64,000 nucleotides of DNA. Source: an uncultured Acetobacteraceae bacterium. GTDB lineage: Bacteria; Pseudomonadota; Alphaproteobacteria; Acetobacterales; Acetobacteraceae. The stretch covers positions 1,933 through 65,932 of the forward strand of contig CAITUP010000098.1 of assembly GCA_903895595.1 (NCBI GenBank), read 5' to 3'. Both the position numbers and the translations under genes were made by a program. Every line of letters begins with the position of its first letter. The stretch's first letter is position 1. This document shows, one piece after another, positions 19,256 through 59,054 of this stretch. The notes under the pieces are model-generated. The model did not search any database, was not told where the DNA came from, and saw nothing but the letters and a program-made list of their open reading frames with translations.

Positions 19256-19509
19256 CTCCCTGCGTTGATCGCTTTCGGATTACAGGAATTTCCGGGGCGG
19301 AGGATGACAGTTCGGTTGCGGCGTCACGACCTGACGTCGGCCGACATCTCAGGCGCCAAGCAGGTCCGTCCGATCCAATGCCGATGGACGGGGATCGGGA
19401 AGGATGAAATCGGATTCCTCCCTCCGTATTCTGGTTCGTCTTCGTAGTAATACCAAGTGCCCTAACCATTGACCAGCAGTTCTCATTATGGCGGTCGTCA
19501 CCTCTTCAT

Positions 19510-19625
19510 CGTCATGGTCGGGCTTGACCCGACCAACTCTGGCGATTTGAGGCGCGTTGAAATTGCGAGTTTTTTTGGCGGTACCCCATTGGCCTGAGTT
19601 GGTCGGGTCAAGCCCGACCATGACG
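19510..19625. repeat. REP doublet (REPIN-like), perfect 30-bp inverted arms
   Basis: CGTCATGGTCGGGCTTGACCCGACCAACTC (19510-19539) is the exact reverse complement of 19596-19625. Confidence 0.9.
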
Positions 19626-19689
19626 GGTATGCGGAACAAAATGGCAAAATGAAAACTGCCGACCATTGACACACCGTCGCATGGAAAGT

Positions 19690-28676: not shown

Positions 28677-28687
28677 CCACACCCCCC

Positions 28688-28761
28688 CGTCATGGTCGGA
28701 CTTGACCCGACCACCTCAGGCCAATGGGAAAACGATGGTCGGGTTAAACCCGACCATGACG
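28688..28761. repeat. REP doublet
   Basis: CGTCATGGTCGGACTTGACCCGACCACCTC (28688-28717) and inverted GATGGTCGGGTTAAACCCGACCATGACG (28734-28761). Confidence 0.88.
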
Positions 28762-28788
28762 GGTCCGAGGCGGCGGTGGGGCGGTCCA

Positions 28789-29075: not shown

Positions 29076-30425
29076 TCAATTGGTCCTCCGCCAAATGGTG
29101 CCTTTGGGTCCGTCCTCAAGCAGAATGCCGCGCGCGGCGAGTTCGTTCCGGATCGCATCCGCCCGCGCGAAATCCCGCGCCTTGCGGGCGGCGAGGCGGT
29201 CGGCGATGGCGGCTTCGATATCCCCGGCGTCATCGCCGTCGCCCCGGAACCATGCCTCCGGCGCCAGTTGCAGCACGCCCAGCACGTCCCCGGCGGCGCG
29301 CAACGCCCGAGCAGCGTCGAAATCGCCGGCCAAGGCCATGTCGGCCAGCGCGTGCATCGCCGACAGCGCCAGCGGCGTATTCAAATCGTCGCACAGCGCA
29401 TCCGCGACCGACGGCGACAGATCGCCGGCGCCGATGTCGGGGAATTTCTCCAACGCACGATAGAAACGATCTAGTTCCTTTTTCGCTTCGCCCAACGCCG
29501 CGTCGGAGAAATCCAGCACCGCGCGATAATGCGCGCGCAGCAGCAGCAGCCGCACCGCCTCGGCCGGCGCCTTGGCCAGAATTTCGCGAATGGTGAAGAA
29601 ATTGCCGAGGCTTTTCGACATTTTCTCCCCGTTTACCAGCAGCATGCCGTTATGCATCCAGTAACGGGCGAAATGGCTGCCGGGGAAAGCGCAGACGCTT
29701 TGTGCGCGTTCGTTCTCATGATGCGGAAAGATCAGGTCCGATCCGCCGCCATGAATGTCGAAATTTTCACCGAGATAGCGCCAGGACATGGCGGAGCACT
29801 CGATATGCCAGCCCGGCCGGCCGCGGCCCCAGGGGGAGTCCCAGCCCGGCAGGTCGTCGCTCGACGGTTTCCACAGCACGAAATCGCCGGCATCGCGCTT
29901 GTAGGGCGCGACATCGACGCGGGCGCCGGCCAGGAGTTCGTCCGGCGTGTGGCCCGAGAGCTTGCCGTAGCCGGGGTCGGTGGCGACGGCGAACAGCACG
30001 TGCCCCTCGGCCGCATAGGCGTGGCCGGAGGCGATCAGGCGTTCGACGATTTGGATCATCTCTTCGATATGCTCGGTCGCGCGCGGCTCCACATCCGGCG
30101 GCAGCGCGTTCAGCTTGGCGATATCGGCATGGAAATCGCGCGTGGTGCGTTCGGTAATCGCGCCGATCGGCTCCCCGGACTCCTGGGCGCGGGCGTTGAT
30201 CTTGTCGTCCACGTCGGTGATGTTGCGAACATAGGTAACCTTGGGGAACAACACCCGCAGCAGCCGCGACAGCACGTCGAACACCACGATGGGCCGAGCA
30301 TTGCCGAGATGCGCGAGGTCGTAGACGGTCGGCCCACAGACATACATCCGCACATGCTGCGGATCGAGGGGCGCGAAACGCTCCTTCCTCCGGGTCAGGC
30401 TGTTGTGCAGGGTCAGTTCGGGCAT
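29076..30425 (-). CDS. cysS: cysteine--tRNA ligase
   Basis: [61 protein letters not shown]. Confidence 0.97.
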
Positions 30426-30512
30426 GCGGGCGGGGTCCGTTGGGGTGGGGGCGCTTTATCGGGGATTCCGAGGTTGGGTTCAATGTCGGGGTTGGGGGGC
30501 GCCTGACACATC

Positions 30513-30542
30513 CGTCATGTTCGGGCTTGACCCGAACACCTC
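30513..30542 (+). repeat. single REP arm (left boundary of DGR cassette)
   Basis: CGTCATGTTCGGGCTTGACCCGAACACCTC matches the family consensus, with compensatory changes in its internal hairpin. Confidence 0.82.
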
Positions 30543-30613
30543 CTGCGACCGGGGGCGCTTGCCCATCCCCCGGCACTTCCGGCACACTCCCGTCCGCAAC
30601 CGCCGGAGCCGTC

Positions 30614-32718
30614 ATGAAGGGCTTCATCTCCTACGCGCATGCCGACCAAGCGATGTTTCAGGCGTTTCACACGCATCTGAAAGGGATCGAGCGCGTGCTG
30701 GACGTTCGGTTCTGGGCCGATACCGGCATTGGCGGCGGCGCGCATTGGAACGACGAAATAGCAAAGGCCATCGCCGAGGCGGATATTTTCGTGCTGCTGC
30801 TCAGCCCCGATTGGCTGGCCAGCGAATACATCGAAAAGTACGAGGAACCGGCGATCCGGGCACGATACAATCCGAAGACGGGGCTGATCTGTCCGGTGAT
30901 TTTACGCCGCTGCGACTGGACGGACATCGTGCCGGATTTGCAGGGCATCCCGACGCATGGCCGCAAGGTTGTGCCGATCGACGATTGGCGCCCGAAGGAA
31001 CACGGCTACGATGCGGCCCGCGCGGAGATCAAGGCGGAAATCCGGGCACGGTTCAACCTGTCCTCCCGCCCGGCGGAATGGCGCCAGCGGCTGGATGGGG
31101 GCCGCAGAAGCAGCCGGCGATTGTCTGGGTTCAGGAGAACGACCAGCTGGTGCCGGCGGCCGAAGGAGCGGAGGCCGACGACGCCGTCGCCGCGGATGCG
31201 TCCACCCAACGGTCGCAGGGTGTGGTTCGGAACAAGGCGGACACGCTTGCGCGGCTGGCGAACCAGTTAGGCAATCGCCTCGACTCCGACTGGACGGGGA
31301 TCGCGGCGGCGGCTCGGGAATTCGCCGATGAAATGGCGAAACCGACCAAGATGTTGGCGGCGGAGATAGACCCGCTCTGGCACATGTTTCTGCGCTTGTC
31401 GTTATTCCTGGCGATGGATGAGCGTGCGATGAACCGTAGGAATGGGGAGACCGCCCCTTTACCAGCGCCGTTGCATCGCGCCCTGAGCGATCTGGTCGGT
31501 TCGGCTGCGCCCTGGCTGCGCCGCTTCCCCACCGCGCGCGGGATGGACGATCAGCGCCGCGCATCGGGGGCGGACCGCGCAGATATGACCGAAACGATGG
31601 GGTTGGCCGAGGCGCTGATCGCGGCTGCACGGGACGAGCCGTTGATACCGTCATCGGCCGCGAAACGCCTGTCCGACAGTGTGAAAATGGGACAGGATCC
31701 TTCCGTTCCCGGCGACAAGGCGGCAGCAGAGTCCGAAAATGCAATTTATAATCTGTTCGTTAAAATGGGCAGCACAGCGGCGGGTGCGATGCTTGGCGAC
31801 CTGCGCTTCGGATCGGAGGCCGATCGTGCCCTACATGGCCATATCAAGCACGTTTTAAGGGCAATCGAGGATCATCCGCGGATCGGCGCCTATCTCAAAG
31901 CGCGTTTCCCCGACGATTTGCGGCATGCGTTCGAGCAGTTGATGCGGGAGGCTAAGGAATCGCCAGGCGCGTTCGAAATTCCGCCGGAACGGGAAGAAGG
32001 AAGCGGCCCGTCGGTCGCGGGACCGGACATGGTGCGTATCCCCGCGGGCAAATTCATGATGGGGGTTCCGCAAGAGGAAAGCGATGGACCGGAAGGTTGG
32101 GGCGCGAGCGACGACGATTCGCGCCCGGTGCATGAAGTGACGTTCGCCCGGCCATTCCTGCTCGGCAAATACCCCGTCACCGTAGGAGAATACGCCGCAT
32201 TCGCAGGGGATACCGGGCGGACGCCGGAACCGCCGGCATTTCCGCAGACGGATCGGCACCCGGCGGTGAACGTGTCGTTCGCCGATGCTGTGGCCTATAC
32301 CGAATGGCTGTCGGAGCGGACAGGCCTGCGCTACCGGCTGCCGAGCGAGGCGGAATGGGAATATGCGTGCCGGGCAGGGACGACGACGGCGCGGTGGTGG
32401 GGCGATGGGTTCGATCCCTCCAAAGCGAACAAAAACGATCAGGGTACGACGGCGGTCGACCATTACGATCCGAACCCATGGGGCCTGCACGACACGATCG
32501 GCAACGTGTTCGAATGGGTCGCCGATCCCATGCACGACAACTATGTCGATGCTCCCTCCGACGGTTCGGTGTGGACAACCGGAGGTAGCGATGACAGCCG
32601 CGTTGTCCGTGGCGGTTCCTGGAGCAGCAGCGTCGGGAACCACCGCTCCGGCGTCCGCGGCTGGCTCAACCTCAGTGCCCGTCCGTGGGTTGGGTTCCGT
32701 CTCGCCAGAACGCTGTAG
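30614..32718 (+). pseudogene. TIR domain + unknown helical region + FGE-sulfatase/CLec domain fusion (DGR target), split by a 1-nt frameshift near 31097-31101
   Basis: frame 1 from ATG 30614: GFISYAHAD...FWAD..I.GG..W..EI..AI.EADIFVLLLSPDWLASEYI (TIR_2); after the G5 run the protein continues in the 30403..32718 frame to MVRIPAGKFMMG...RLPSEAEWEYACRAG...NPWGLHD..GNVFEW...RVVRGGSW...GFRLAR. Confidence 0.85.
32595..32708 (+). repeat. DGR variable region (VR)
   Basis: 114-bp gap-free match to 32916-33029; encodes SRVVRGGSWSSSVGNHRSGVRGWLNLSARPWVGFRLA at the protein C-terminus. Confidence 0.95.
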
Positions 32719-32741
32719 TCTCTTTAATCTTAGACTCTTTA

Positions 32742-32774
32742 CCTCTTTAGAGAGGGGTCCGGGGCATAGCCCCG
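32742..32774 (+). promoter_or_regulatory. hairpins downstream of VR/IMH (putative DGR homing cis-elements)
   Basis: CCTCT-TTAG-AGAGG (32742-32755) and CGGGGC-ATA-GCCCCG (32760-32774), 24-56 bp after the target stop codon, preceded by CTCTTTA repeats. Confidence 0.65.
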
Positions 32775-32915
32775 TGGAAATTTTTGGGGTTTTTAAGGCC
32801 TTGCACGACTCGGGCGCATTGGCGCCGTATGCGTCCGCTATCGGGCGTTCGCGCCCTACGATCTTCCCCCGCGCCCGGCCTGTTCGCCGTCCCAAGGGGA
32901 AGCCTGGCCGCCCCC

Positions 32916-33029
32916 CAGCCGCGTTGTCCGTGGCGGTTCCTGGAACAACAACGACAGGAACCACCGCTCCGGCAACCGCAACTGGAACAACGACAGTGCC
33001 CGTCCGTGGGTTGGGTTCCGTCTCGCCAG
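32916..33029 (+). ncRNA. DGR template repeat (TR)
   Basis: non-coding copy of VR with 8 AAC codons in the target frame; 12 A-to-N differences plus one G-to-C; 3' flank diverges from VR (GCCAGCACGCCT versus GCCAGAACGCTG). Confidence 0.93.
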
Positions 33030-33217
33030 CACGCCTCCATGCCAGAGCCGGGTGGGTCAAGGCCCAGTCGGGAGTGCCGAGGTTGCGTTCAGGGGTTGCC
33101 ATGATGACAAGGGGTGCAAGTGGTTTGACCCCGGTGCTCCCGGCGCCTGTCCTGGTTCTTCGATGGACGACAGGCGCCGGAACTTCCCGCGGGCACCCGG
33201 CCGGCCGGGTGTCTGCC

Positions 33218-33307
33218 ATTTGCGTTCATTCGCGGTTTCACTTTGGCAGGCGGAAGAACCGGTTCATTGGTCAGGTCCAAGGATCGGAACCGCGAACGAA
33301 CGCAAAT
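33218..33307. repeat. 22-bp imperfect inverted repeat
   Basis: ATTTGCGTTCATTCGCGGTTTC (33218-33239) versus GGAACCGCGAACGAACGCAAAT (33286-33307), 20/22 complementary. Confidence 0.8.
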
Positions 33308-33390
33308 TTCCGGTGGCCGAGACAAACCGTGGGTAGCGGGCCTGCGCCCGCCATGACGGTATTTCTCTTCGGCCCATGCCAAATTGGCCT

Positions 33391-33420
33391 GAGATGGTCG
33401 GGTCAAACCCGACCATGACG
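33391..33420 (-). repeat. single REP arm (right boundary of DGR cassette)
   Basis: GAGATGGTCGGGTCAAACCCGACCATGACG, inverted relative to 30513-30542; preceded by ATTGGCCT as at 19588-19595. Confidence 0.85.
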
Positions 33421-33434
33421 GGGTGCGAGGACGA

Positions 33435-35036
33435 CTATGCGGCTGCGTCTTCCTTGATCATCACCGCTGCCTTTTCCCCGATCATGATTGTCGGCGCGTT
33501 CGTATTCCCCGTGGTCAGTGTCGGCATGATCGACGCATCCGCCACCCGCAGCCCCGCGATCCCGTGCACCCGCAGCCGGGAATCAACCACGGCCGCCGGT
33601 CCTTCGCCCATCCGGCACGTCCCGACAGGGTGATAAATCGTCGTCCCGTAATCCTTGAAGAACTGCGTCAGCGCCGCGTCCGATGTCACATCCGGACCCG
33701 GCAGCGTCTCCACCACGCTGTGCTTGGCAATCGCCGGAGAGGCGAAAATCTCCCGCGTGAACCGCGTGCCCGCCAGCAGCACCTGAATATCCGCGGGATC
33801 GGACAGATAGTTGGGCGCGATCGCCGCTTTCTCGAACGGGTCGGCGGACCGAGCCATGATGGTGCCACGGCTGTCGGGGCGGACGGGGCAGATGGCGACG
33901 GTCATGCCGTCTTCGCGCTCCAGTTCCCCGAATTTGGCGTTGTCGTAGCTCGCGGGCGTGAACAGCAGTTGCAGATCGGGGCTCGCGAGTTCCGGCCGGG
34001 ACCGGCAGAACACCTGCGCCGTCGTTACCCCGAACGTCAGCGCCCCATTCCCGGCGGTGAAGAATTTCGCGACTTCGCGGACCAGCCGAACGCCGCGCGC
34101 CAGTTTATTGATCGAAATGGAATCGCGCACGCGGTGCGATACGCGGGCCACGTAATGATCCTGCAAGTTCGCCCCGACCCCGCGCAGATCGTGCACGACC
34201 GGCACGCCGATCGATTGCAGATGCGCCGCCGGTCCGACGCCGGAGATTTGCAGCAGATGGGGGGAGTTGATGGCGCCGCCGGACAAAATTACCTCCCGCC
34301 CCGCGCGCAGTTCCTTATCCTGCCCGCGCTGACGGTAGGCGACGCCGACGCAGCGCTTGCCCTCGAACAGCAGTTTGGTCGCGATCGCTTCGGTTTCGAC
34401 CCGCAGGTTGGGGCGGCTCCGCGCCTCTTTCAGGAACGTCTGCGCCGTCGAGCCGCGCCACTTCCCCTTGCGGGTCATTTGGGAATAGCCGACGCCCTCC
34501 TGCTGGCGTCCGTTCAGGTCTTTGCTGAACGGAAACCCGGCCTGCTGCGCGGCCTCGATGAAACGGTGGGTGAGGGGCAGGATCGTGCGGTAGTCCTCGA
34601 CCTTCAACGGCCCGCCGGTGCCGCGATAATCCGTGTCAGCCGCCTGCTTGTAGCTTTCGGATTTGCGGAACAGCGGCAGGACATCGTCGAAGCTCCAGCC
34701 GCGGCAGCCCATTTGTGCCCAGCCGTCGAAATCGGCGGGGTTGCCGCGCACATACAGCATGCCGTTGATCGAGGACGACCCGCCCAGCGTCTTGCCGCGT
34801 GGCCAATGGATTCGGCGGCCACCGCTGCCGTCGGAGGGTTCGGAACTGTAATTCCAGTTCACGACAGGGTGGTACAGCAGTTTCAGGACCCCGGCCGGGA
34901 TGTGGATCCAGGGGTTGGTGTCCGGCGGCCCGGCCTCCAGCAGCACCACCGAGGCGCCGGTCTCCGACAGGCGGGAAGCCACGACGCAGCCGGCCGATCC
35001 GGCGCCCACAACGATGTAATCCGCGTCCATGTGCAT
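33435..35036 (-). CDS. GMC oxidoreductase (choline dehydrogenase-like)
   Basis: VGAGSAG, RGKTLGGSSSINGMLYVRG, VGANLQDH, YHPVGTCRMG, ADASIMP...GNTNAP. Confidence 0.94.
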   Translation of the reverse strand: MHMDADYIVVGAGSAGCVVASRLSETGASVVLLEAGPPDTNPWIHIPAGVLKLLYHPVVNWNYSSEPSDGSGGRRIHWPRGKTLGGSSSINGMLYVRGNPADFDGWAQMGCRGWSFDDVLPLFRKSESYKQAADTDYRGTGGPLKVEDYRTILPLTHRFIEAAQQAGFPFSKDLNGRQQEGVGYSQMTRKGKWRGSTAQTFLKEARSRPNLRVETEAIATKLLFEGKRCVGVAYRQRGQDKELRAGREVILSGGAINSPHLLQISGVGPAAHLQSIGVPVVHDLRGVGANLQDHYVARVSHRVRDSISINKLARGVRLVREVAKFFTAGNGALTFGVTTAQVFCRSRPELASPDLQLLFTPASYDNAKFGELEREDGMTVAICPVRPDSRGTIMARSADPFEKAAIAPNYLSDPADIQVLLAGTRFTREIFASPAIAKHSVVETLPGPDVTSDAALTQFFKDYGTTIYHPVGTCRMGEGPAAVVDSRLRVHGIAGLRVADASIMPTLTTGNTNAPTIMIGEKAAVMIKEDAAA

Positions 35037-44214: not shown

Positions 44215-44342
44215 GCGAGATTCACCACTGAACCACTGAACCACGGAACAGACCGAGCAACCTGGCACGCCTGAGGCCCAACGCCCCGGCTTCTCCGAAG
44301 TTCCGTGGTTCAGTGGTTCAGTGGTTCAGTGGTGAATCTTGC
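44215..44342. repeat. inverted repeat built from tandem 8-mers (CACTGAAC x2 versus GTTCAGTG x3)
   Basis: TTCACCACTGAACCACTGAACCACGGAAC (44221-44249) mirrors GTTCCGTGGTTCAGTGGTTCAGTGGTTCAGTGGTGAA (44300-44336). Confidence 0.82.
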
Positions 44343-44493
44343 GATCGTTCCACGGGCGCACACGGCCACAACCCGCAAACCGAATCGTACCTCCATCCTC
44401 CGCTTGGACAACAGCCTGCCTTTGCCGCTAATGACTTGGCCGATGCGCGGCCGATTCCCGGCGGATCGGCCTTTATCCGAGAATGAGAACCGC

Positions 44494-46035
44494 ATGCCCA
44501 TTTTGAGTTGGTTGACACGGGACGACGACATCCGCGCCGCTCGGCAGGTGCCGTACCGGCTGCTGGATTCGGTGCCCGAACTCTCGGCGGGCGATCCGGC
44601 CTCGGGGAATATGCTGATCCAGGGGGATAATCTGGATGCGCTGAAGGCGTTGCTGCCATTTTACGCGGGGCGGGTGAAGTGCATTTACATCGATCCGCCT
44701 TACAATACGCGGTCGGCGTTCGAGCATTACGACGATAATTTGGAACATACGCAGTGGCTGTCGATGATGTGGCCTCGGTTGGAGTTGCTGCGGGAGTTGT
44801 TGGCGGAGGATGGTTCGATTTGGGTTTCCATCGACGACAATGAGGGGCATTATTTAAAGGTGGTGACGGATGAGGTTTTTGGGCGTCGGAATTTCATAAC
44901 GAATATCGTATGACAAAAATCATATACGTCGAATCAAACAGCGAAATTCATATCCGATACCCATGACCATGTATTTTTGTACGCAAAAGATCAAGACCTA
45001 TTCCGTCTTGGGAAGATTGATCGAACTGAAGACCAAAAGAATTCGTTTAAAAACCCTGATAGCGATATTCGGGGAGATTGGAAGGCGGCAAATCTTTCTG
45101 CTGGGAAATACTATGAGGCCGGTCAGTTTCCTATTACCGGCCCTACCGGAAAGGTTTTCTATCCGCCGAAAAATAGATATTGGCGATGCAATGAGGACAC
45201 GTTCAACCTTTGGCTGGAAGACCGTCGAATTACATTTGGGCGGGACGGTACCGGGCGTCCAATGCTCAAAAAATATCTTCATGAGATGAAGTCTGGGCTG
45301 ACGCCAAACACCTGGTGGTCATATAACGAGGTTGGTGGCAATAAGCAGGCGAGCTCGGATCTGAAGGCGCTATTTCCGGATCAGGAGGTCTTCGGTACGC
45401 CGAAACCGGTAAGTCTAATCGAACGGTTGTTGACATTATCCACCAATCCCGGCGACCTCGCCCTCGACTCCTTCCTCGGCTCCGGCACTACCGCCGCTGT
45501 CGCGCACAAAATGAACCGCCGCTACATCGGCATCGAAATGGGCGATCACGCCGTCACCCATTGCGTCCCACGCCTGAAAAAAGTCATCGACGGCGAGCAA
45601 GGCGGCATCTCCGCCAGCGTCGGCTGGCAGGGCGGCGGCGGGTTCCGCTTCTACCGCCTCGGCCCGCCGGTCTTCGACGAAGATGGCCAGATCCGCGCCG
45701 ATATCGCCTTCCCGGTGCTCGCCGCGCATATCTGGTTCAGCGAAACCGGCACGCCCTGGACCGCGACCGACAACACCCCGTTTATCGGCTTTCACGATGG
45801 GCGGGCTTTCGTGCTGCTGTATAACGGCATCCTCGGCGACAAGCGCCCCGCCGGCGGCAATGTGCTCACCCGAGCCACCCTGGCCATCGTCCGCGCCGCC
45901 ATCGCGGCGGCCGATCCCGCATTCGCCGGCCCCGTCACCATCTACGGCGAACAATCGCGCATCGCTGCTGCCACGCTCGAAAACGACGGCCTGACCTTCA
46001 AGCAGACGCCCTACGACGTCAAAGCAAGGCGCTGA
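44494..46035 (+). pseudogene. mod: type III R-M methyltransferase (Mod) with premature in-frame TGA at 44911-44913
   Basis: IQGDNL.ALK, IYIDPPYNT, WVSIDDNE, TNIV*QK, FGTPKP..LIERLL, LDSFLGSGTT; the same frame continues through the stop to 46035. Confidence 0.88.
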
Positions 46036-46044
46036 GGAACGGTC

Positions 46045-49000
46045 ATGCAGCTCAAACAATACCAGACCGACACGCTGACCATCCTCCGCCGCTATTTGGA
46101 GGAAGCGCGCACCGCCGGACCCGCTCCGGCCTACGACCTGCTGACCGCCGAACCCGAGCAGGAAAAGCGCTTGGGCCGCTACCGGTCGGCGTACAAGGCG
46201 CTGGAGGCGTTGCCGGACACGCCCTATGTCTGCCTGCGCCTGCCGACCGGCGGCGGAAAGACCATCCTCGCGGCACACGCCATCGGTATCGCCCGCGATG
46301 CCTGGATGGAGAAAGACCACCCGCTGGTCCTGTGGCTGGTGCCGTCCAACACCATCCGCCAGCAAACCGCCGAGGCGTTGAAGAACCCGCGCCATCCCTA
46401 TCGCCAGGTGCTGGACGAGCTGTTCGGCGGCCGCGTGCGGGTGTTCGATATTACCGACTTCACCGATATCCGCCCGCACGACATCGCCGACAGCGTGTGC
46501 GTGGTCGTCGGCACCATCCAAACCCTGCGCGTCAACAATACGGAAGGCCGCAAGGTCTACGCCCACAACGAAAACCTGGAGACCCATTTCAGCCGCGTCC
46601 CGCCCAACATGCCGGGGCTGGAACTGCGCGACAACGGCGCGCCGCGGTTCTCTTTCGCCAATCTGCTCCACGTCCATCGCCCGCTGATGATCGTCGATGA
46701 GGCGCACAATGCCGTGACGGGCCTGACGCGGGAGATGCAGACCCGCGTCAATCCCTGCGCGATCGTCGAATTCACCGCGACGCCGCGCATGGACTCCAAC
46801 ATTCTGCACAGCGTCTCGGCGCGGGAACTCAAAGCCGCCGAGATGATCAAGCTGCCGATCGTCCTCGCGGAACACGACTCCTGGCAAACCGCGGTGAACG
46901 GCGCGATCGCCAGCCGGGCGGCCTTGGCGGACGCAGCGAAGGGGGAGAGGGACTACATCCGCCCCATCGTCCTGTTCCAGGCGCAAAACCGCGACCAGGA
47001 GATCACCGTCGAAGTGCTGAAAAAGCATCTGACGGACGTGGAACACATCCCGGAGGACCGGATCGCCATCGCCACCGGCGACCAACGGCAACTGGACGGG
47101 TTGGATTTGTTCGATCCTGCCTGCCGGATCGAATACGTCATCACCATCGCGGCCTTGAAGGAAGGTTGGGATTGCTCCTTCGCCTACGTCTTTTGCTCCG
47201 TCGCCCGCATCCAAAGCGCCACCGACGTGGAACAGCTGCTCGGGCGCGTCCTGCGCATGCCCTACGCGCGGCGACGGACGGCGGAGGCTTTGAACCGCGC
47301 CTACGCCCATGTGTCGGAACCGTCGTTCGGCGCGGCGGCCGCGGCACTGACCGACAAGTTGATCGCGATGGGCTTCGATGAGGACGATGCGCGGGATGCG
47401 ATCGAACCGGCGCAGACCAGTCTGGACGACACGGGATTGTTCGCGCCGCGGCCGGTACCGCTTCCGGTGTTCCGCCATGTCGTGACCGTCAGCTCGGCGG
47501 AGGCGGCAGCCATCGCAACCGCCGTCGCCGCCGAAGGTGTCGCTGTCACACCGCGACCGGATGGCACGGTCGAGATCGCGGTCACCGGTCGGGTGCGGCC
47601 CGAGGTGGAGGAAGCCATCTCCGCCGCGATTCCGGAGCCGGTGCGCCGGCATTTCGCCGAGGCGGTCCGGACGTATCGTGTGGCAATCCAGGACCAGTTG
47701 TCGCCAGCCGAGCAAGGAGAGGAATTCAAGGTTCCCCGCCTGATGGCGGAAATTCAGGGCAATTTGGAATTCGCGGATACCGACCTGTTTTTCGACGAAT
47801 TCCACGACTGGACGCTGGCGTCCTATCCGGCGCGGTTCGATGCCCCCGAATTCACGGCCGACGAAACCGCCCGCAACTGGGAAATCGACCTGAACGGCAG
47901 CCGTATTTCCTATCATTTCGCCAATGAGGACGCTCAATTGGCCCTGGATGTGGATGTCGAGGGTTGGACGCCGCAAAATCTGGTCATCTGGATGGCGCGG
48001 CAATTGCGGCATCACACGATTCATCCGTCCGACCTTCATGCGTGGCTCACGAACTGTATCGCCTATCTGATCGCGGCCCGGAAAATACCGATTGCCGCGT
48101 TGATGCGCATGAAGTTCATCCTGATCCGCAAGCTGCAATCGCGCATCGATGCCGCGCGTTTGGTGGAACGGAATGCTGCGTTCCAGCGGTATCTGTTCGC
48201 GCCCGAAGCGCGGGTGTCGGTTTCGTTCGAGACCGCGTTCGAATTCAAAGATGGGATGTACCGTGATGTAAAAAAACAACCTCCCGGCCGTTGGAAGCCT
48301 CAAAAGCATTTTCTGGGACCGAATCAGGTCCCGGCGTTCGACGGCGCGGAAGGCGGCGAAGAATTTCAGTGCGCCCAGGCGATCGACAGCCTGCCCCAGG
48401 TGCAATTCTGGATCAGGAATGTATCAAGGCATCCGGCCTCGTTCTGGCTCCCCACGGCCACCGACAAATTCTACCCCGATTTCGTGGCGCGGCTGACCGA
48501 CGGGAGGCTATTGATCGTCGAATACAAAGGGGCGTTGCTCGCCGGGCCGGGTGTGGACGATACCAACGAGAAGCGTGCCGTCGGGCGGCTATGGGAAACC
48601 CATAGCGGCGGCCTGTTCATCGTGGTCGAGAAGCAGGTCCGCGTGCTCGGCATGCGTGCTCAGCTTTTGGAAAAACTCGGTAGCTGGCAGCCCCCTTCAA
48701 CCACCCCGCCCATACCCCAAAGCCCGCAAAGCCGCCGCCGGCTCCCGCGCCAAAATCGTCATCAACGACCGAGCGCTCGGGTCCATCAAGGTCCGCCCTT
48801 GTTCCCAGTTCTGCAGCGTCGCCACCGGAATATGGATCGCGTCCGCGAACCGCCGCTGCGACATGCCCAACCGCTTGCGAATAACAGCCGGGGAGATGAT
48901 ATCGCCCTCATCGATGTCCTCATCGGGGTCGTAGCCGTCCTCCCGCATATGCCGCGCGATATCGGCCTCGGTCGTCGCGTCGATCCGAACAAGATCGACG

Positions 49001-49179
49001 GCCGGGGTTTTGGCCATGATCTCCGCCAGTGTCATGCCCGATTTTGCCATAGCCGTAGATCCTTTCCGCTCGCTTTCCACGCACTGATAATCCAAAGGAC
49101 ACAGCCCCGGATCGTGAATACCACGACAAAGGCCCGTCCATCGATCGCTCCGATTGCTCGGATCCGTTCTTCGCCGTAG
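46045..49179 (+). CDS. res: type III R-M restriction subunit (Res; SF2 helicase + PD-(D/E)XK nuclease); C-terminal about 165 aa probably read-through
   Basis: LPTGGGKT, IVDEAHN, FTATP, LKEGWDC, EQLLGRVLR, FYPDFVARLTDGRLLIVEYKG; protein-like sequence ends near 48685. Confidence 0.88.
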   Translation: MQLKQYQTDTLTILRRYLEEARTAGPAPAYDLLTAEPEQEKRLGRYRSAYKALEALPDTPYVCLRLPTGGGKTILAAHAIGIARDAWMEKDHPLVLWLVPSNTIRQQTAEALKNPRHPYRQVLDELFGGRVRVFDITDFTDIRPHDIADSVCVVVGTIQTLRVNNTEGRKVYAHNENLETHFSRVPPNMPGLELRDNGAPRFSFANLLHVHRPLMIVDEAHNAVTGLTREMQTRVNPCAIVEFTATPRMDSNILHSVSARELKAAEMIKLPIVLAEHDSWQTAVNGAIASRAALADAAKGERDYIRPIVLFQAQNRDQEITVEVLKKHLTDVEHIPEDRIAIATGDQRQLDGLDLFDPACRIEYVITIAALKEGWDCSFAYVFCSVARIQSATDVEQLLGRVLRMPYARRRTAEALNRAYAHVSEPSFGAAAAALTDKLIAMGFDEDDARDAIEPAQTSLDDTGLFAPRPVPLPVFRHVVTVSSAEAAAIATAVAAEGVAVTPRPDGTVEIAVTGRVRPEVEEAISAAIPEPVRRHFAEAVRTYRVAIQDQLSPAEQGEEFKVPRLMAEIQGNLEFADTDLFFDEFHDWTLASYPARFDAPEFTADETARNWEIDLNGSRISYHFANEDAQLALDVDVEGWTPQNLVIWMARQLRHHTIHPSDLHAWLTNCIAYLIAARKIPIAALMRMKFILIRKLQSRIDAARLVERNAAFQRYLFAPEARVSVSFETAFEFKDGMYRDVKKQPPGRWKPQKHFLGPNQVPAFDGAEGGEEFQCAQAIDSLPQVQFWIRNVSRHPASFWLPTATDKFYPDFVARLTDGRLLIVEYKGALLAGPGVDDTNEKRAVGRLWETHSGGLFIVVEKQVRVLGMRAQLLEKLGSWQPPSTTPPIPQSPQSRRRLPRQNRHQRPSARVHQGPPLFPVLQRRHRNMDRVREPPLRHAQPLANNSRGDDIALIDVLIGVVAVLPHMPRDIGLGRRVDPNKIDGRGFGHDLRQCHARFCHSRRSFPLAFHALIIQRTQPRIVNTTTKARPSIAPIARIRSSP
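48697..49050 (-). CDS. XRE/HigA-like HTH antitoxin
   Basis: IRKRLGMSQRRFADAIHIPVATLQNWEQGR..D..AR.L. Confidence 0.85.
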   Translation of the reverse strand: MAKSGMTLAEIMAKTPAVDLVRIDATTEADIARHMREDGYDPDEDIDEGDIISPAVIRKRLGMSQRRFADAIHIPVATLQNWEQGRTLMDPSARSLMTILAREPAAALRALGYGRGG

Positions 49180-53467: not shown

Positions 53468-53656
53468 CAGGGGGATCGCATATGGCGGATTTCCGACACT
53501 TTCCGTCATGGTCGGGCCTGACCCGACCATCTCACGCCAATTGGGCACCGTTCGAAAAACCCTGCCTTTTCAATGGTGCGCAAAATCGCAGAAGATGGTC
53601 GGGTCACGCCCGACCATGACGAGCGGGGCCACCAAAGGTCGTATGCGATAGCCCTG
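53468..53656. mobile_element. MITE with CAGGG ends, internal REP doublet and 10-bp target-site duplication
   Basis: TIRs CAGGGGGATCGCATATG / CGTATGCGATAGCCCTG; AATGAAAGCG at 53458-53467 and 53657-53666. Confidence 0.88.
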
Positions 53657-58952: not shown

Positions 58953-59054
58953 CAGGGGGATCGCATATGGCGGATTTCCAACACTTTCCGTCATGGTCGG
59001 GTCAAGCCCGACCATGACGAGCGGGGGCGCCAAAGGTCATATGCGATAGCCCTG
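58953..59054. mobile_element. second, internally collapsed MITE copy with 10-bp target-site duplication
   Basis: TIRs CAGGGGGATCGCATATG / CATATGCGATAGCCCTG; ACATGCGCCG at 58943-58952 and 59055-59064; internal perfect hairpin CGTCATGGTCGGG-TCAAG-CCCGACCATGACG. Confidence 0.9.

Follow-up and report, generated by a model that had tools for sequence, protein, structure and literature searches.

A target gene and template repeat of a diversity-generating retroelement, probably a module served in trans, in an Acetobacteraceae-like bacterium

Introduction

In the diversity-generating retroelement (DGR) of phage BPP-1, self-primed cDNA synthesis requires the flanks of the template repeat (TR), including 140 nt of spacer (PMC6182149), and avd-TR-brt function in trans (PMC5758913). 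Action in trans of the reverse transcriptase (RT) machinery is known from several reports (PMC5758913, PMC10907252, PMC4891356, PMC4372165). Remote targets lying up to megabases from the RT gene are well known (PMC5758913, PMC10907252) and, in Treponema denticola, leftover targets have been documented in strains that lost the DGR core (PMC4891356). TIR-bearing lectin-fold targets as well as trans-acting or incomplete DGR loci are already published (PMC10907252), and “putative antigen sensor” DGRs were reported by Dore et al. 2024 (PMC10907252).

The locus described here occupies positions 30513-33420 of a 64 kb stretch of DNA that was analysed as a whole (hereafter the window). A first-pass annotation presented it with a novelty that was overstated, considering the study cited above (PMC10907252) and the existence of two complete TIR-FGE DGRs (L096 and L101) with the same RNA in the TR flank. 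Of the three working parts of a DGR, two are present in the interval: the target gene and a template RNA gene standing on its own.

Results and Discussion

Template and Variable Repeats

The variable region (VR; 32595-32713) and TR (32916-33034) form a direct repeat of 119 nt on the forward strand, ungapped, 88% identical and offset by 321. The earlier claim of a gapless 114-bp alignment with 12 of 13 mismatches at TR adenines was reproduced on realignment: in this 114-nt core, 12 mismatches fall on the 23 TR adenines and a single one on the 91 non-A positions (one-sided Fisher p = 2.9e-9). The sole non-A mismatch, a G->C at TR position 32992, adjoins a mutated A. A fourteenth mismatch lies outside the core at TR position 33030, which is C in TR and A in every VR allele. 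The 3′ boundary is marked by this mismatch, which is also found in the related locus L096 (LAST versus LART). In the target frame, all 12 A-mismatches affect the first or second codon position, and the TR and VR codon readings of the first-pass annotation were borne out, the encoded peptides being NNNDRNHRSGNRNWNND (TR) and SSSVGNHRSGVRGWLNL (VR) as it had written them. When three VR alleles are pooled, 21 of the 24 TR adenines are varied against 3 of the 95 non-A positions. Simple deamination is excluded by the substitution spectrum (A->G 19, A->T 14, A->C 3). TR/VR differences targeted to adenines, and a VR placed at the 3′ end of a lectin-fold ORF with those adenines at codon positions 1 or 2, are both characteristic of DGRs.

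VR comprises the last 40 codons of the target gene, inside its FGE-sulfatase domain; variation is concentrated in a core (32617-32674) while the last 34-39 nt are invariant and common to TR. The TR, which has 24 adenines and eight AAC codons, is positioned 197 nt downstream of the target stop codon and separated from VR by a non-coding spacer. The TR frame is open from 32797 to 33336 yet has no in-frame ATG, GTG or TTG before the TR end. TR is hence not part of a translated paralogue, an eventuality that the first-pass annotation had named as contradicting its reading.

The Target Gene

The 5′ part of the target gene is a TIR ORF in frame A (30614-31270, forward strand) whose TIR_2 domain spans approximately positions 30623-30982 (Pfam TIR_2 2.5e-15). 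Past 31102 this reading is out of frame and runs on to the stop codon 31268-31270. The remainder of the gene is read in frame B (31102-32718; stop codon 32716-32718) and codes for a helical middle region followed by an FGE-sulfatase/C-type-lectin fold at ~32023-32709 (Pfam FGE-sulfatase 1.4e-51; PDB matches PvdO 5hha, 1e-37, and TvpA 2y3c, 7.5e-9). Both Pfam matches uphold the domain composition first proposed for the target. The break between frames lies at 31097-31101, where the window has five G residues and the intact 701-aa alleles of L001 and L003 have six; this 1-nt deletion (G6-to-G5) puts the TIR and lectin parts in different frames. The frameshift is real in the population, because the G5 allele recurs with no indel in Logan contigs of several runs (X1, X2, X3, X5, X6 and X8). 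The “receptor coupled to a TIR effector” claimed initially is split in the window by this frameshift. A candidate internal restart is the GTG at 31150, with AGGAG upstream (31133-31137). Programmed -1 frameshifting at the G-run was considered and discarded: T GGG GGC does not qualify as a slippery heptamer, and the run is simply one G longer in the intact alleles.

The middle region (~260 aa) has no family match and is predicted, with low confidence, to be all-helical. The AlphaFold model of the intact fusion, a check proposed at the outset, was computed for the 701-aa allele from a 4-sequence alignment and reached a pLDDT of 38; it provided the helical prediction, only secondary structure being taken from it, but was unusable for a fold search. 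No STAND NTPase (NACHT or nSTAND) was found in the target by Pfam, NCBIfam and PADLOC, which gave only the TIR and FGE domains. Identity as an FGE/PvdO enzyme was rejected (154 bits with the PvdO equivalog model versus a cutoff of 500; VR loop without Cys). In FGE, the catalytic cysteine pair is carried by the C-terminal loop that corresponds to VR here.

The TIR domain, a putative NADase-type effector, matches the PADLOC ThsB model (6.7e-19 for the intact allele P0001) and has an acidic residue, E71 (D in homologues), four residues past a conserved Trp. This is presumably the position at which TIR NADases have their catalytic Glu. Neither a ThsA partner nor a defence island is nearby; the neighbouring genes are cysS, spoU and those of a GGDEF-EAL protein and a GMC oxidoreductase. 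A local TR is absent from the distant TIR-FGE homologues P0004, P0005 and P0011.

Structured RNA of the TR Flank and Other Elements

The TR 3′ end and its flank form a structured RNA of 170 nt on the forward strand (33012-33181). It was recognized by a covariance model built from L096, L099, L100 and L101, with the window excluded, at 71.9 bits (E=5.8e-12); this is the one clear match in the 64 kb window, the runner-up scoring 20.4 bits. No Rfam family corresponds to the TR flank. Hairpin P1 (33048-33071), which starts 14 nt past the TR end, has ten base pairs closed by a CAAG loop. Compensatory changes are found at 8 of these 10 pairs across the 5 loci, and more compensatory variants occur in metagenome and metatranscriptome contigs. 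Hairpin P3 (33141-33180) is a GC-rich stem that also shows compensatory changes. In the 5-locus flank alignment, 93% of the cells pair (34-51% in slid controls) and 13 pairs are changed on both sides (2-5 in slid controls), values reached by 0 of 500 shuffles. The flank RNA keeps at least 90% of its pairs. A structured RNA adjoining TR, supported by covariation, is a further DGR character of the locus, and this particular RNA is common to complete DGRs with bAvd, RT and TIR-lectin targets. By analogy, 33012-33181 is considered to be the counterpart of the BPP-1 “spacer” (Sp) region and would recruit or bind the RT.

These data bear on the position of the local TR in the system. It is quite improbable that a complete DGR elsewhere, with an identical or nearly identical TR, does all the work on what would be an ordinary remote target, the local TR being a passive duplicate. 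Remote targets are documented (PMC5758913, PMC10907252), but the full-length covarying flank RNA kept by the local TR (71.9 bits) is unexpected of an unused duplicate. The only TR found in L101 has the same position, following a target gene. Furthermore, no second TR or TR 3′ end was detected in genome, metagenome and viral collections: there were no matches of an exact 32-mer for further TR/VR copies in genome or viral contig collections, of an adenine-degenerate TR/VR pattern in JGI metagenomes, of a TR-specific 23-mer in viral contigs, or of TR plus flank by blastn against plasmids and phages.

No sigma-70-like promoter was found upstream of TR. Metatranscriptome contigs from two wetland sets cover TR and ~95 nt of its flank with all adenines kept, at a depth up to 28.9, and have no coverage of the target gene; they derive from relatives (90-96% identity) and not demonstrably from the window organism. 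TR is presumably transcribed in this host as well.

Two small hairpins followed by T-runs (32742-32755 and 32760-32774, forward strand) are found after the target stop codon, 29-47 nt 3′ of VR. Their folding z-score of -1.55 is not significant. They are likely the transcription terminator of the target gene and could, by analogy, also correspond to the hairpin that follows VR in BPP-1. Downstream of the flank RNA, the segment 33189-33307 (forward strand) contains a terminator-like hairpin (33189-33216) and a long near-perfect hairpin (33218-33237 with 33288-33307), each unique in the window. The cassette is bracketed by REP-like palindromic elements, on the left at 30512-30542 (reverse strand; an element with at least 10 copies in the window) and on the right at 33391-33421 (forward strand). 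Their read depth, several hundred to several thousand x, indicates hundreds of copies per genome.

Absence of a Neighbouring Reverse Transcriptase

The description of 30513-33420 as a complete retroelement does not hold, as both the 64 kb window and the syntenic contigs lack RT and Avd. A six-frame scan of the window for the RT motif Y[AVIM]DD found none. The BPP-1 Brt and Avd probes had no match in the window or the syntenic contigs (tblastn/phmmer), and neither had the closer probes, RT and Avd (bAvd) of L096, in the window or the syntenic contigs L001-L003 (E>0.7); the L096 RT probe is sensitive enough to pick up BPP-1 Brt at 8.6e-27. Pfam analysis of ~45 ORFs, essentially all the large ORFs of the window, identified housekeeping, transport and restriction-modification functions only, with no RT or Avd. 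Two elements usual in DGRs, an RT adjacent to TR (sought in the 64 kb window and L001-L003) and an accessory protein in the cassette (Avd or HRDC; probes BPP-1 Avd and L096 bAvd), are thus not found. L001 and L003, which are independent assemblies, show this arrangement without an RT as well (TR, flank, REP, GMC oxidoreductase), and so do Logan contigs. Neither this absence nor the break between the TIR and lectin frames was mentioned in the first-pass annotation.

The locus is probably a target-plus-template module, non-autonomous and belonging to a known DGR clade, that is served in trans by an RT encoded elsewhere. As no RT was located, we infer the service in trans. The REP marker of the host was sought on four RT contigs from the L096 clade or its vicinity and none carries it; the RTs concerned are 62-78% identical to one another, in a clade of more than 7,900 members.

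Strain Comparison and VR Diversity

An Acetobacteraceae-like or Rhodospirillales host and a chromosomal setting of the cassette, as proposed initially, are both supported; the best CysS match is to “Rhodospirillales bacterium 70-18” at 79%, followed by Acetobacteraceae MAGs at 67-68%. The window and L001 are 99.6% identical overall. They have 20 differences within 32617-32674 and only 4 in the other ~3 kb, while their TRs are identical over 119 of 119 nt. TR contigs of X1, X2, X4, X5, X13 and X14 also show 0 differences. A constant TR next to a VR that varies among close genomes is what is expected of a DGR.

For the lineage of the window, Logan contigs of X1-X4, X7 and X15 show no VR allele other than the window type, leaving ongoing diversification in this strain unsupported. 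Together with the 1-nt deletion that splits the target, this single allele across samples fits an inactive module, which may be idle or decaying here. A more radical version is that the locus is a dead relic of a once complete DGR that lost avd-RT, with TR and VR drifting as leftovers and the frameshift as a first step of decay. The lack of RT and Avd in 64 kb, the frameshifted allele fixed in the samples of two studies, the single VR allele and the precedent of T. denticola (PMC4891356) are all compatible with such a relic. We nevertheless hold it to be rather unlikely. The TR is perfectly intact (24 A, eight AAC codons) and does not differ between strains; the flank RNA has preserved its pairing; and the 20 to 4 excess of VR over flank differences separates strains ~99.6% identical that have the same RT-less junction. 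In addition, unitigs of the deeper samples X13 and X14 break at 32600/32622 and resume at 32679, with a depth of 0-5 in the VR core versus 30-75 in its flanks, the pattern expected if VR is heterogeneous there. The depth drops in the VR core of Logan contigs (X13, X14, X5 and X6) are suggestive of VR variation.

The locus is a mosaic between lineages, its middle region being 70-78% identical and its TIR and lectin parts 89-100%, and L001 and L002 have four identical VR substitutions in common. VR alleles may therefore have spread by recombination instead of arising after the split of the lineages.

The repeat is prone to confuse assemblers, as seen from L003, in which VR and TR are collapsed into one chimeric copy, and from circular 351-nt unitigs in X5 and X6. 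These observations could speak for an assembly artefact, an adjacent RT having been lost by misassembly, or be set beside a coincidental duplication. Either is highly improbable: the junction between TR and the GMC oxidoreductase gene is unbroken in the window and L001 as well as in Logan contigs of several runs, X14 (33000-33450) and X15 (32805-33450) each cover it with 0 differences, and the adenine bias (p=3e-9) argues against chance.

A read joint that goes back 321, as well as the 351-nt contigs, was attributed to de Bruijn loops via a 36-nt segment common to VR and TR. Joints that skip ~2840, considered as empty sites, rather stem from other REP doublets elsewhere in the genome. An empty-site comparison based on cysS was uninformative, the nearest genomes sharing the spoU side only.

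Proposed Mechanism and Implications

In the proposed module served in trans, TR and ~150 nt of structured 3′ flank would be transcribed together as a template RNA gene. An Avd-RT complex, encoded more than 30 kb away or on another replicon, would recognize the flank structure and synthesize a cDNA faithful except opposite adenines. VR would be overwritten by this cDNA as far as the invariant 3′ segment, with at most ~21 positions of the lectin fold's ligand-binding surface being recoded. As a cytoplasmic sensor, the intact protein would join a variable tip to a TIR (Thoeris ThsB-like) effector.

Within the clade the template differs in placement. It adjoins the RT in L096, follows a target 2 kb away in L101, lies past an insertion sequence in L100 and stands by itself next to a tRNA gene in L099; in the window it accompanies a target, without an RT over at least 30 kb. 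We tentatively suggest that, in the L096 RT clade, free-standing template genes might be non-autonomous DGR satellites of a shared Avd-RT, if they are live, and would then be missed systematically by RT-anchored surveys. Their dependence would then resemble that of SINEs on LINEs. DGR surveys begin at the RT gene and seek TR/VR pairs nearby, an approach to which an RT-less target-plus-template module with an intact, conserved recruiting RNA would be invisible. If such modules are active, one RT would programme several independent templates per genome and DGR-diversified proteins would be undercounted. The covariance model of the template flank offers a protein-independent means to find DGR templates. 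This locus is a further TIR-lectin “variable sensor”, here from outside the multicellular bacteria, and its on (701-aa) and off (frameshifted) alleles occur naturally in lake strains found together.

Comparison with Known Systems

The locus shares with the BPP-1 DGR (mtd-avd-TR-brt) the adenine-specific flow from TR to VR, a C-type-lectin-fold gene with VR as its 3′ end, a constant 3′ segment bearing a TR/VR difference at its boundary, and a structured flank downstream of TR, which is needed for priming in BPP-1 (PMC6182149). It differs by its gene order without avd or brt and by the sequence of its flank RNA (the covariance model R1 of the flank RNA has no match on L087). The target is cytoplasmic and TIR-linked, whereas that of BPP-1 is a phage tail fibre, and the hairpins 29-47 nt past VR lack statistical support.

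Diversified targets away from the RT are a point in common with the trans or incomplete DGRs (T. denticola remote targets, Thiohalocapsa PB-PSB1 DGR 1/4/5, the nanoarchaeal cassette without an RT ORF). In the published trans cases consulted, however, the remote VR target borrows an RT-adjacent TR, whereas in the window TR and its flank RNA travel with the target and the proteins alone are lacking. The TIR resembles the Thoeris ThsB type by its PADLOC match and by E71, the acidic residue past the conserved Trp, but is fused to a sensor instead of standing alone, with no ThsA nearby. The target lacks the central STAND NTPase of TIR-STAND/NLR-like antigen sensors, a difference that also sets it apart from the L096/L101 clade, whose DGRs are the “putative antigen sensor” DGRs of Dore et al. 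2024 (PMC10907252); a further difference is the window host, a unicellular-type freshwater alphaproteobacterium and not a multicellular bacterium.

The closest systems are the DGRs of the L096/L101 clade. L096 has the order TIR-FGE target, TR, bAvd, RVT_1, TIR-FGE target, and L101 the order bAvd, RT, TIR-FGE target, TR with flank, in which the succession of target and TR is that of the window. Their bAvd and RVT_1 RT lie 0-3 kb from TR, whereas the window has neither in 64 kb, and their TIR and middle region have no detectable similarity to those of the window. In both clade members and window, a TIR forms the N-terminus of the target and an FGE/CLec fold its C-terminus, where VR comes last; the lectin domains are 35-45% identical, the TR peptide and its flanks are homologous (WPxPSRVVRGGSWNN...GFRLAST), and the TR 3′-flank RNA is held in common, with covariation.

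The Adenine-Biased Repeat and Its Target Gene

The locus contains an ungapped direct repeat of 119 nt (32595-32713 and 32916-33034). Its adenine bias, reported in the first-pass annotation over 114 nt, was reproduced: of the 13 mismatches, the 23 adenines of the downstream copy account for 12 and its 91 other nucleotides for one (one-sided Fisher p = 2.9e-9). All adenine mismatches are at codon position 1 or 2 in the frame of the upstream copy, which encodes SSSVGNHRSGVRGWLNL. With its eight AAC codons, the downstream copy corresponds to the peptide NNNDRNHRSGNRNWNND. It had been read as a template rather than as part of a translated paralogue, and this holds: no stop codon interrupts its frame between 32797 and 33336, but there is no start codon before the end of the repeat. 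The upstream copy is the variable region (VR) and the downstream copy the template repeat (TR). Position 33030 is C in the TR and A in every VR, a fixed, non-adenine difference that marks the 3′ limit of information transfer. A TR/VR boundary difference of this type recurs in a related diversity-generating retroelement (DGR; LAST versus LART).

The proposed TIR plus lectin-fold composition of the target was confirmed by Pfam matches to TIR_2 (2.5e-15, frame from the AUG at 30614) and FGE-sulfatase (1.4e-51, ending at 32718), which sit in different reading frames in the window. A search of 5.8 billion proteins identified intact 701-aa homologues carrying both domains, P0001 (98% identity) and P0002 (84%). 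Alignment locates the break at 31097-31101, where the window has five G and the related metagenome contigs L001 and L003 have six. The five-G sequence, without indel, also occurs in the Logan contigs of six metagenome runs, which belong to two studies, and this makes the frameshift a genuine allele, not an assembly error. Its product is a 218-aa TIR protein with an out-of-frame tail, and the sensor part might restart at the GUG at 31150, 3′ of an AGGAG (31133-31137). The TIR domain matches the PADLOC ThsB model (6.7e-19). The lectin-fold domain is nearest to PvdO (5hha, 1e-37), with a score far below the PvdO equivalog cutoff, and also matches TvpA, the Treponema DGR variable protein (2y3c, 7.5e-9). 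The 260-aa middle region is predicted to be helical (poor model, pLDDT 38) and has no family match.

Missing Reverse Transcriptase and Genomic Surroundings

Canonical DGRs encode a reverse transcriptase (RT), and usually the accessory protein Avd, beside the TR. Here the VR-TR spacer is 197 nt; past the TR come 386 non-coding nt and then a GMC oxidoreductase gene in convergent orientation. A six-frame scan of the window gave no candidate RT catalytic motif. BPP-1 Brt and Avd had no match in it as tblastn and phmmer queries, nor did the much closer RT and bAvd of the related DGR locus L096 (E > 0.7), whose RT detects Brt at 8.6e-27. Pfam analysis of essentially all large ORFs of the window found no RT, Avd, integrase or phage gene; they are those of an ordinary chromosome (RecJ, GlpX, CysS, PolA, Der, BamB, MotA/B, transporters and a Type III restriction-modification pair). 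The junctions from TR to REP, the palindromic element flanking the cassette, and on to the GMC oxidoreductase gene are the same in the independent contigs L001 and L003 and in several Logan contigs. Because RT and Avd are absent from the window and the junctions are confirmed independently, the interval 30513-33420 cannot be kept as the complete retroelement it had been called. That the arrangement is an artefact is extremely improbable given these contigs, assembler effects at the repeat notwithstanding (see below).

The REP-like palindrome GTCGGGTCAAaCCCGACCATGACGG has at least 10 copies in the window (including 19509-19626, 28687-28762, 30512-30542, 33391-33421, 53503-53622 and 58988-59020), with hundreds in each genome, judging by read depth. 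They are usually paired as (-)/(+) doublets separated by 50-95 nt; the (-) and (+) REPs on either side of the DGR cassette are 2.85 kb apart, as if the cassette had been inserted into a doublet. In L002, a contig of a lineage with 84% protein identity, the place taken in the window by the left REP, between cysS and the target, is occupied by a HepT/MNT toxin-antitoxin pair (2204-2850). The Type III pair (44305-49176) consists of an N6_N4 methylase followed by a ResIII helicase (46036-49176). The methylase is broken by an in-frame UGA (44911-44913) flanked by AT-rich DNA, with Pfam profile positions 1-77 before and 85-217 after the stop, and is the second inactivated defence-type gene in the window, besides the target gene.

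Related Loci and the Template-Flank RNA

Relatives were found with the TR-frame peptide as query, its hits being two ORFs annotated across TRs of other metagenomes; the close RTs number 7,973 (E < 1e-30). Locus L096 reads TIR-FGE target, TR, bAvd, RVT_1, second TIR-FGE target, and L101 reads TIR-FGE, patatin, TIR-nSTAND1-FGE, bAvd, RT, TIR-FGE, TR. The only TR detected in L101 sits 3′ of a target gene, some 2 kb beyond the RT, and the local order is that of the window. L100 has an insertion sequence between RT and TR. The 1.4-kb contig L099 (1-1432) carries a solo TR, with no target, Avd or RT: a tRNA gene fragment precedes the TR and its structured flank (about 330-615), and DUF4160 and DUF2442 genes follow. 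The lectin domain of the window is 35-45% identical to those of the related targets, whose TIR and middle regions have no detectable kinship with those of the window. Two short contigs without a TR, L004 and L088, encode distant homologues (P0004 and P0005, 31-33% identity) of the same TIR-middle-FGE architecture, whose differences from one another are concentrated in the VR-equivalent loop, as though a DGR had diversified them.

The window and the related loci are homologous across the TR and beyond it, over about 15 nt on its 5′ side and about 150 nt on its 3′ side. In the RNAalifold prediction, one hairpin (33048-33071) lies 14 nt past the TR, enclosing stems that use the TR 3′ end, and a second, GC-rich one occupies 33141-33180. 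For these two hairpins alone, in a 5-locus alignment, 93% of cells are paired (34-51% with slid partners) and 13 pairs have changes on both sides (2-5 in slid controls), values matched by none of 500 shuffles. A covariance model trained on the four other loci alone gave a single clear match in the left-out window (33012-33181, 71.9 bits, E = 5.8e-12; runner-up 20.4 bits). The first hairpin gains further compensatory pairs from variant contigs of lake metagenomes and wetland metatranscriptomes, for example 33053 T>C with 33066 A>G, and 33056 G>T or G>A with 33063 C>A or C>T, respectively. Judged by this covariation, the flank is a conserved structured RNA. For cDNA synthesis, BPP-1 bRT-Avd depends on 20 nt of sequence before the TR and 140 nt after it, and priming is from an adenosine within the downstream spacer (PMC6182149); by analogy, the conserved flank may be the RT-recruiting and priming element. 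Past it, at 33189-33307, are a 12-bp terminator-like hairpin and a nearly perfect 20-bp hairpin with a 50-nt loop, both single-copy in the window and absent from the related loci.

VR Alleles, Populations and Expression

L001, a contig of an ENA lake metagenome, matches the window at 99.56% identity across 6.3 kb. Of the positions in 30400-33450 at which they differ, 20 lie inside 32617-32674 and only 4 outside it, and their TRs are identical (119/119). The L002 VR differs from the window TR only at adenines and at the fixed boundary position. With the three VR alleles pooled, 21 of 24 TR adenines varied versus 3 of 95 other positions. The adenines were replaced by G (19), T (14) and C (3), which rules out deamination. 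Since strains with this 20 to 4 ratio have the RT-less junction in common, rewriting would have occurred in a lineage already without a neighbouring RT, which is the argument for service in trans.

Four VR substitutions are the same in L001 and L002, so VR alleles could also have moved between strains by recombination. These substitutions are at TR 59, 65 and 74-75 (window 32653, 32659 and 32668-32669); the L001 (98% lineage) and L002 VRs are alike in the half adjoining the 3′ boundary (both ...RYWNLD...) and differ in their 5′ halves. Partial retrohoming is expected to rewrite the VR 3′ half first, and sharing in this half suggests allele exchange or selection for one and the same ligand. The lineages diverge in a mosaic fashion (middle region 70-78% identical, ends 89-100%), which points to recombination or diversifying selection in the middle. 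Against L002, window 31014-31913 in the helical region is 70-78% identical, compared with 88-98% for the TIR part and 89-100% for the lectin part. Runs X4, X13 and X14 contain a second lineage with L002-type SNPs upstream of the VR (32510-32592); X14 combines these with window-type sequence downstream of it, which points to a third, recombinant haplotype. This mosaic structure is a caveat on the argument for service in trans.

The window-type VR allele is continuous through the VR in the lake and freshwater metagenomes X1-X3, and in X4, X7 and X15 no other allele was observed for that lineage. In X13 and X14 (30-75x) unitigs end at 32600/32622 and restart at 32679, with a VR-core depth of 0-5, and X5 and X6 have no VR-specific unitigs left. 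These gaps fit VR heterogeneity in other lineages but fall short of proof, since Logan contigs drop rare variants. In L003 (6127-6245) VR and TR are merged into one copy, VR-like at its 5′ end and TR-like at its 3′ end, and in the 351-nt X5/X6 Logan contigs the repeat yields circular unitigs of 321 + 30 nt. Both are most likely assembler effects of a 36-nt identical segment, an explanation favoured over a real VR/TR recombination deletion.

Two wetland metatranscriptomes have contigs that span the TR plus about 95 nt of its flank (90-96% identity, all adenines kept; one of 228 nt at depth 28.9), and neither covers the target gene. The contigs stem from relatives of the window organism, yet they show that the template unit is transcribed on its own. 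That the local TR is an unused duplicate of that of a remote complete DGR, a reading in which the RT would also lie elsewhere, is improbable.

Interpretation and Comparison with Known Systems

The best-supported reading, which we consider fairly probable, is a non-autonomous DGR module: target and template RNA gene lie side by side, and the proteins would be provided in trans. The frameshift and the single VR allele of the window strain are what an idle or decaying copy would show; a dead relic, set beside the VR-confined differences from L001, is a doubtful but serious alternative. The locus is real and clean, and useful for an RT-independent search for DGR templates.

Our literature search found no paper linking DGRs to Acetobacteraceae. 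The near-unprecedented status first given to the locus does not stand: Thiohalocapsa and other multicellular bacteria have been reported to carry TIR-bearing lectin-fold targets and incomplete loci and to show activity in trans (PMC10907252). Targets up to megabases from the RT and a plasmid-borne avd-TR-brt working in trans are established (PMC5758913), targets are left over in Treponema strains that lost the DGR core (PMC4891356), and a nanoarchaeal cassette is drawn without an RT ORF (PMC4372165). In contrast to these published loci, the TR and putative recruiting RNA of the window travel with the target and the proteins alone are absent, within a template-flank RNA family that has a range of TR placements, solo TR included.
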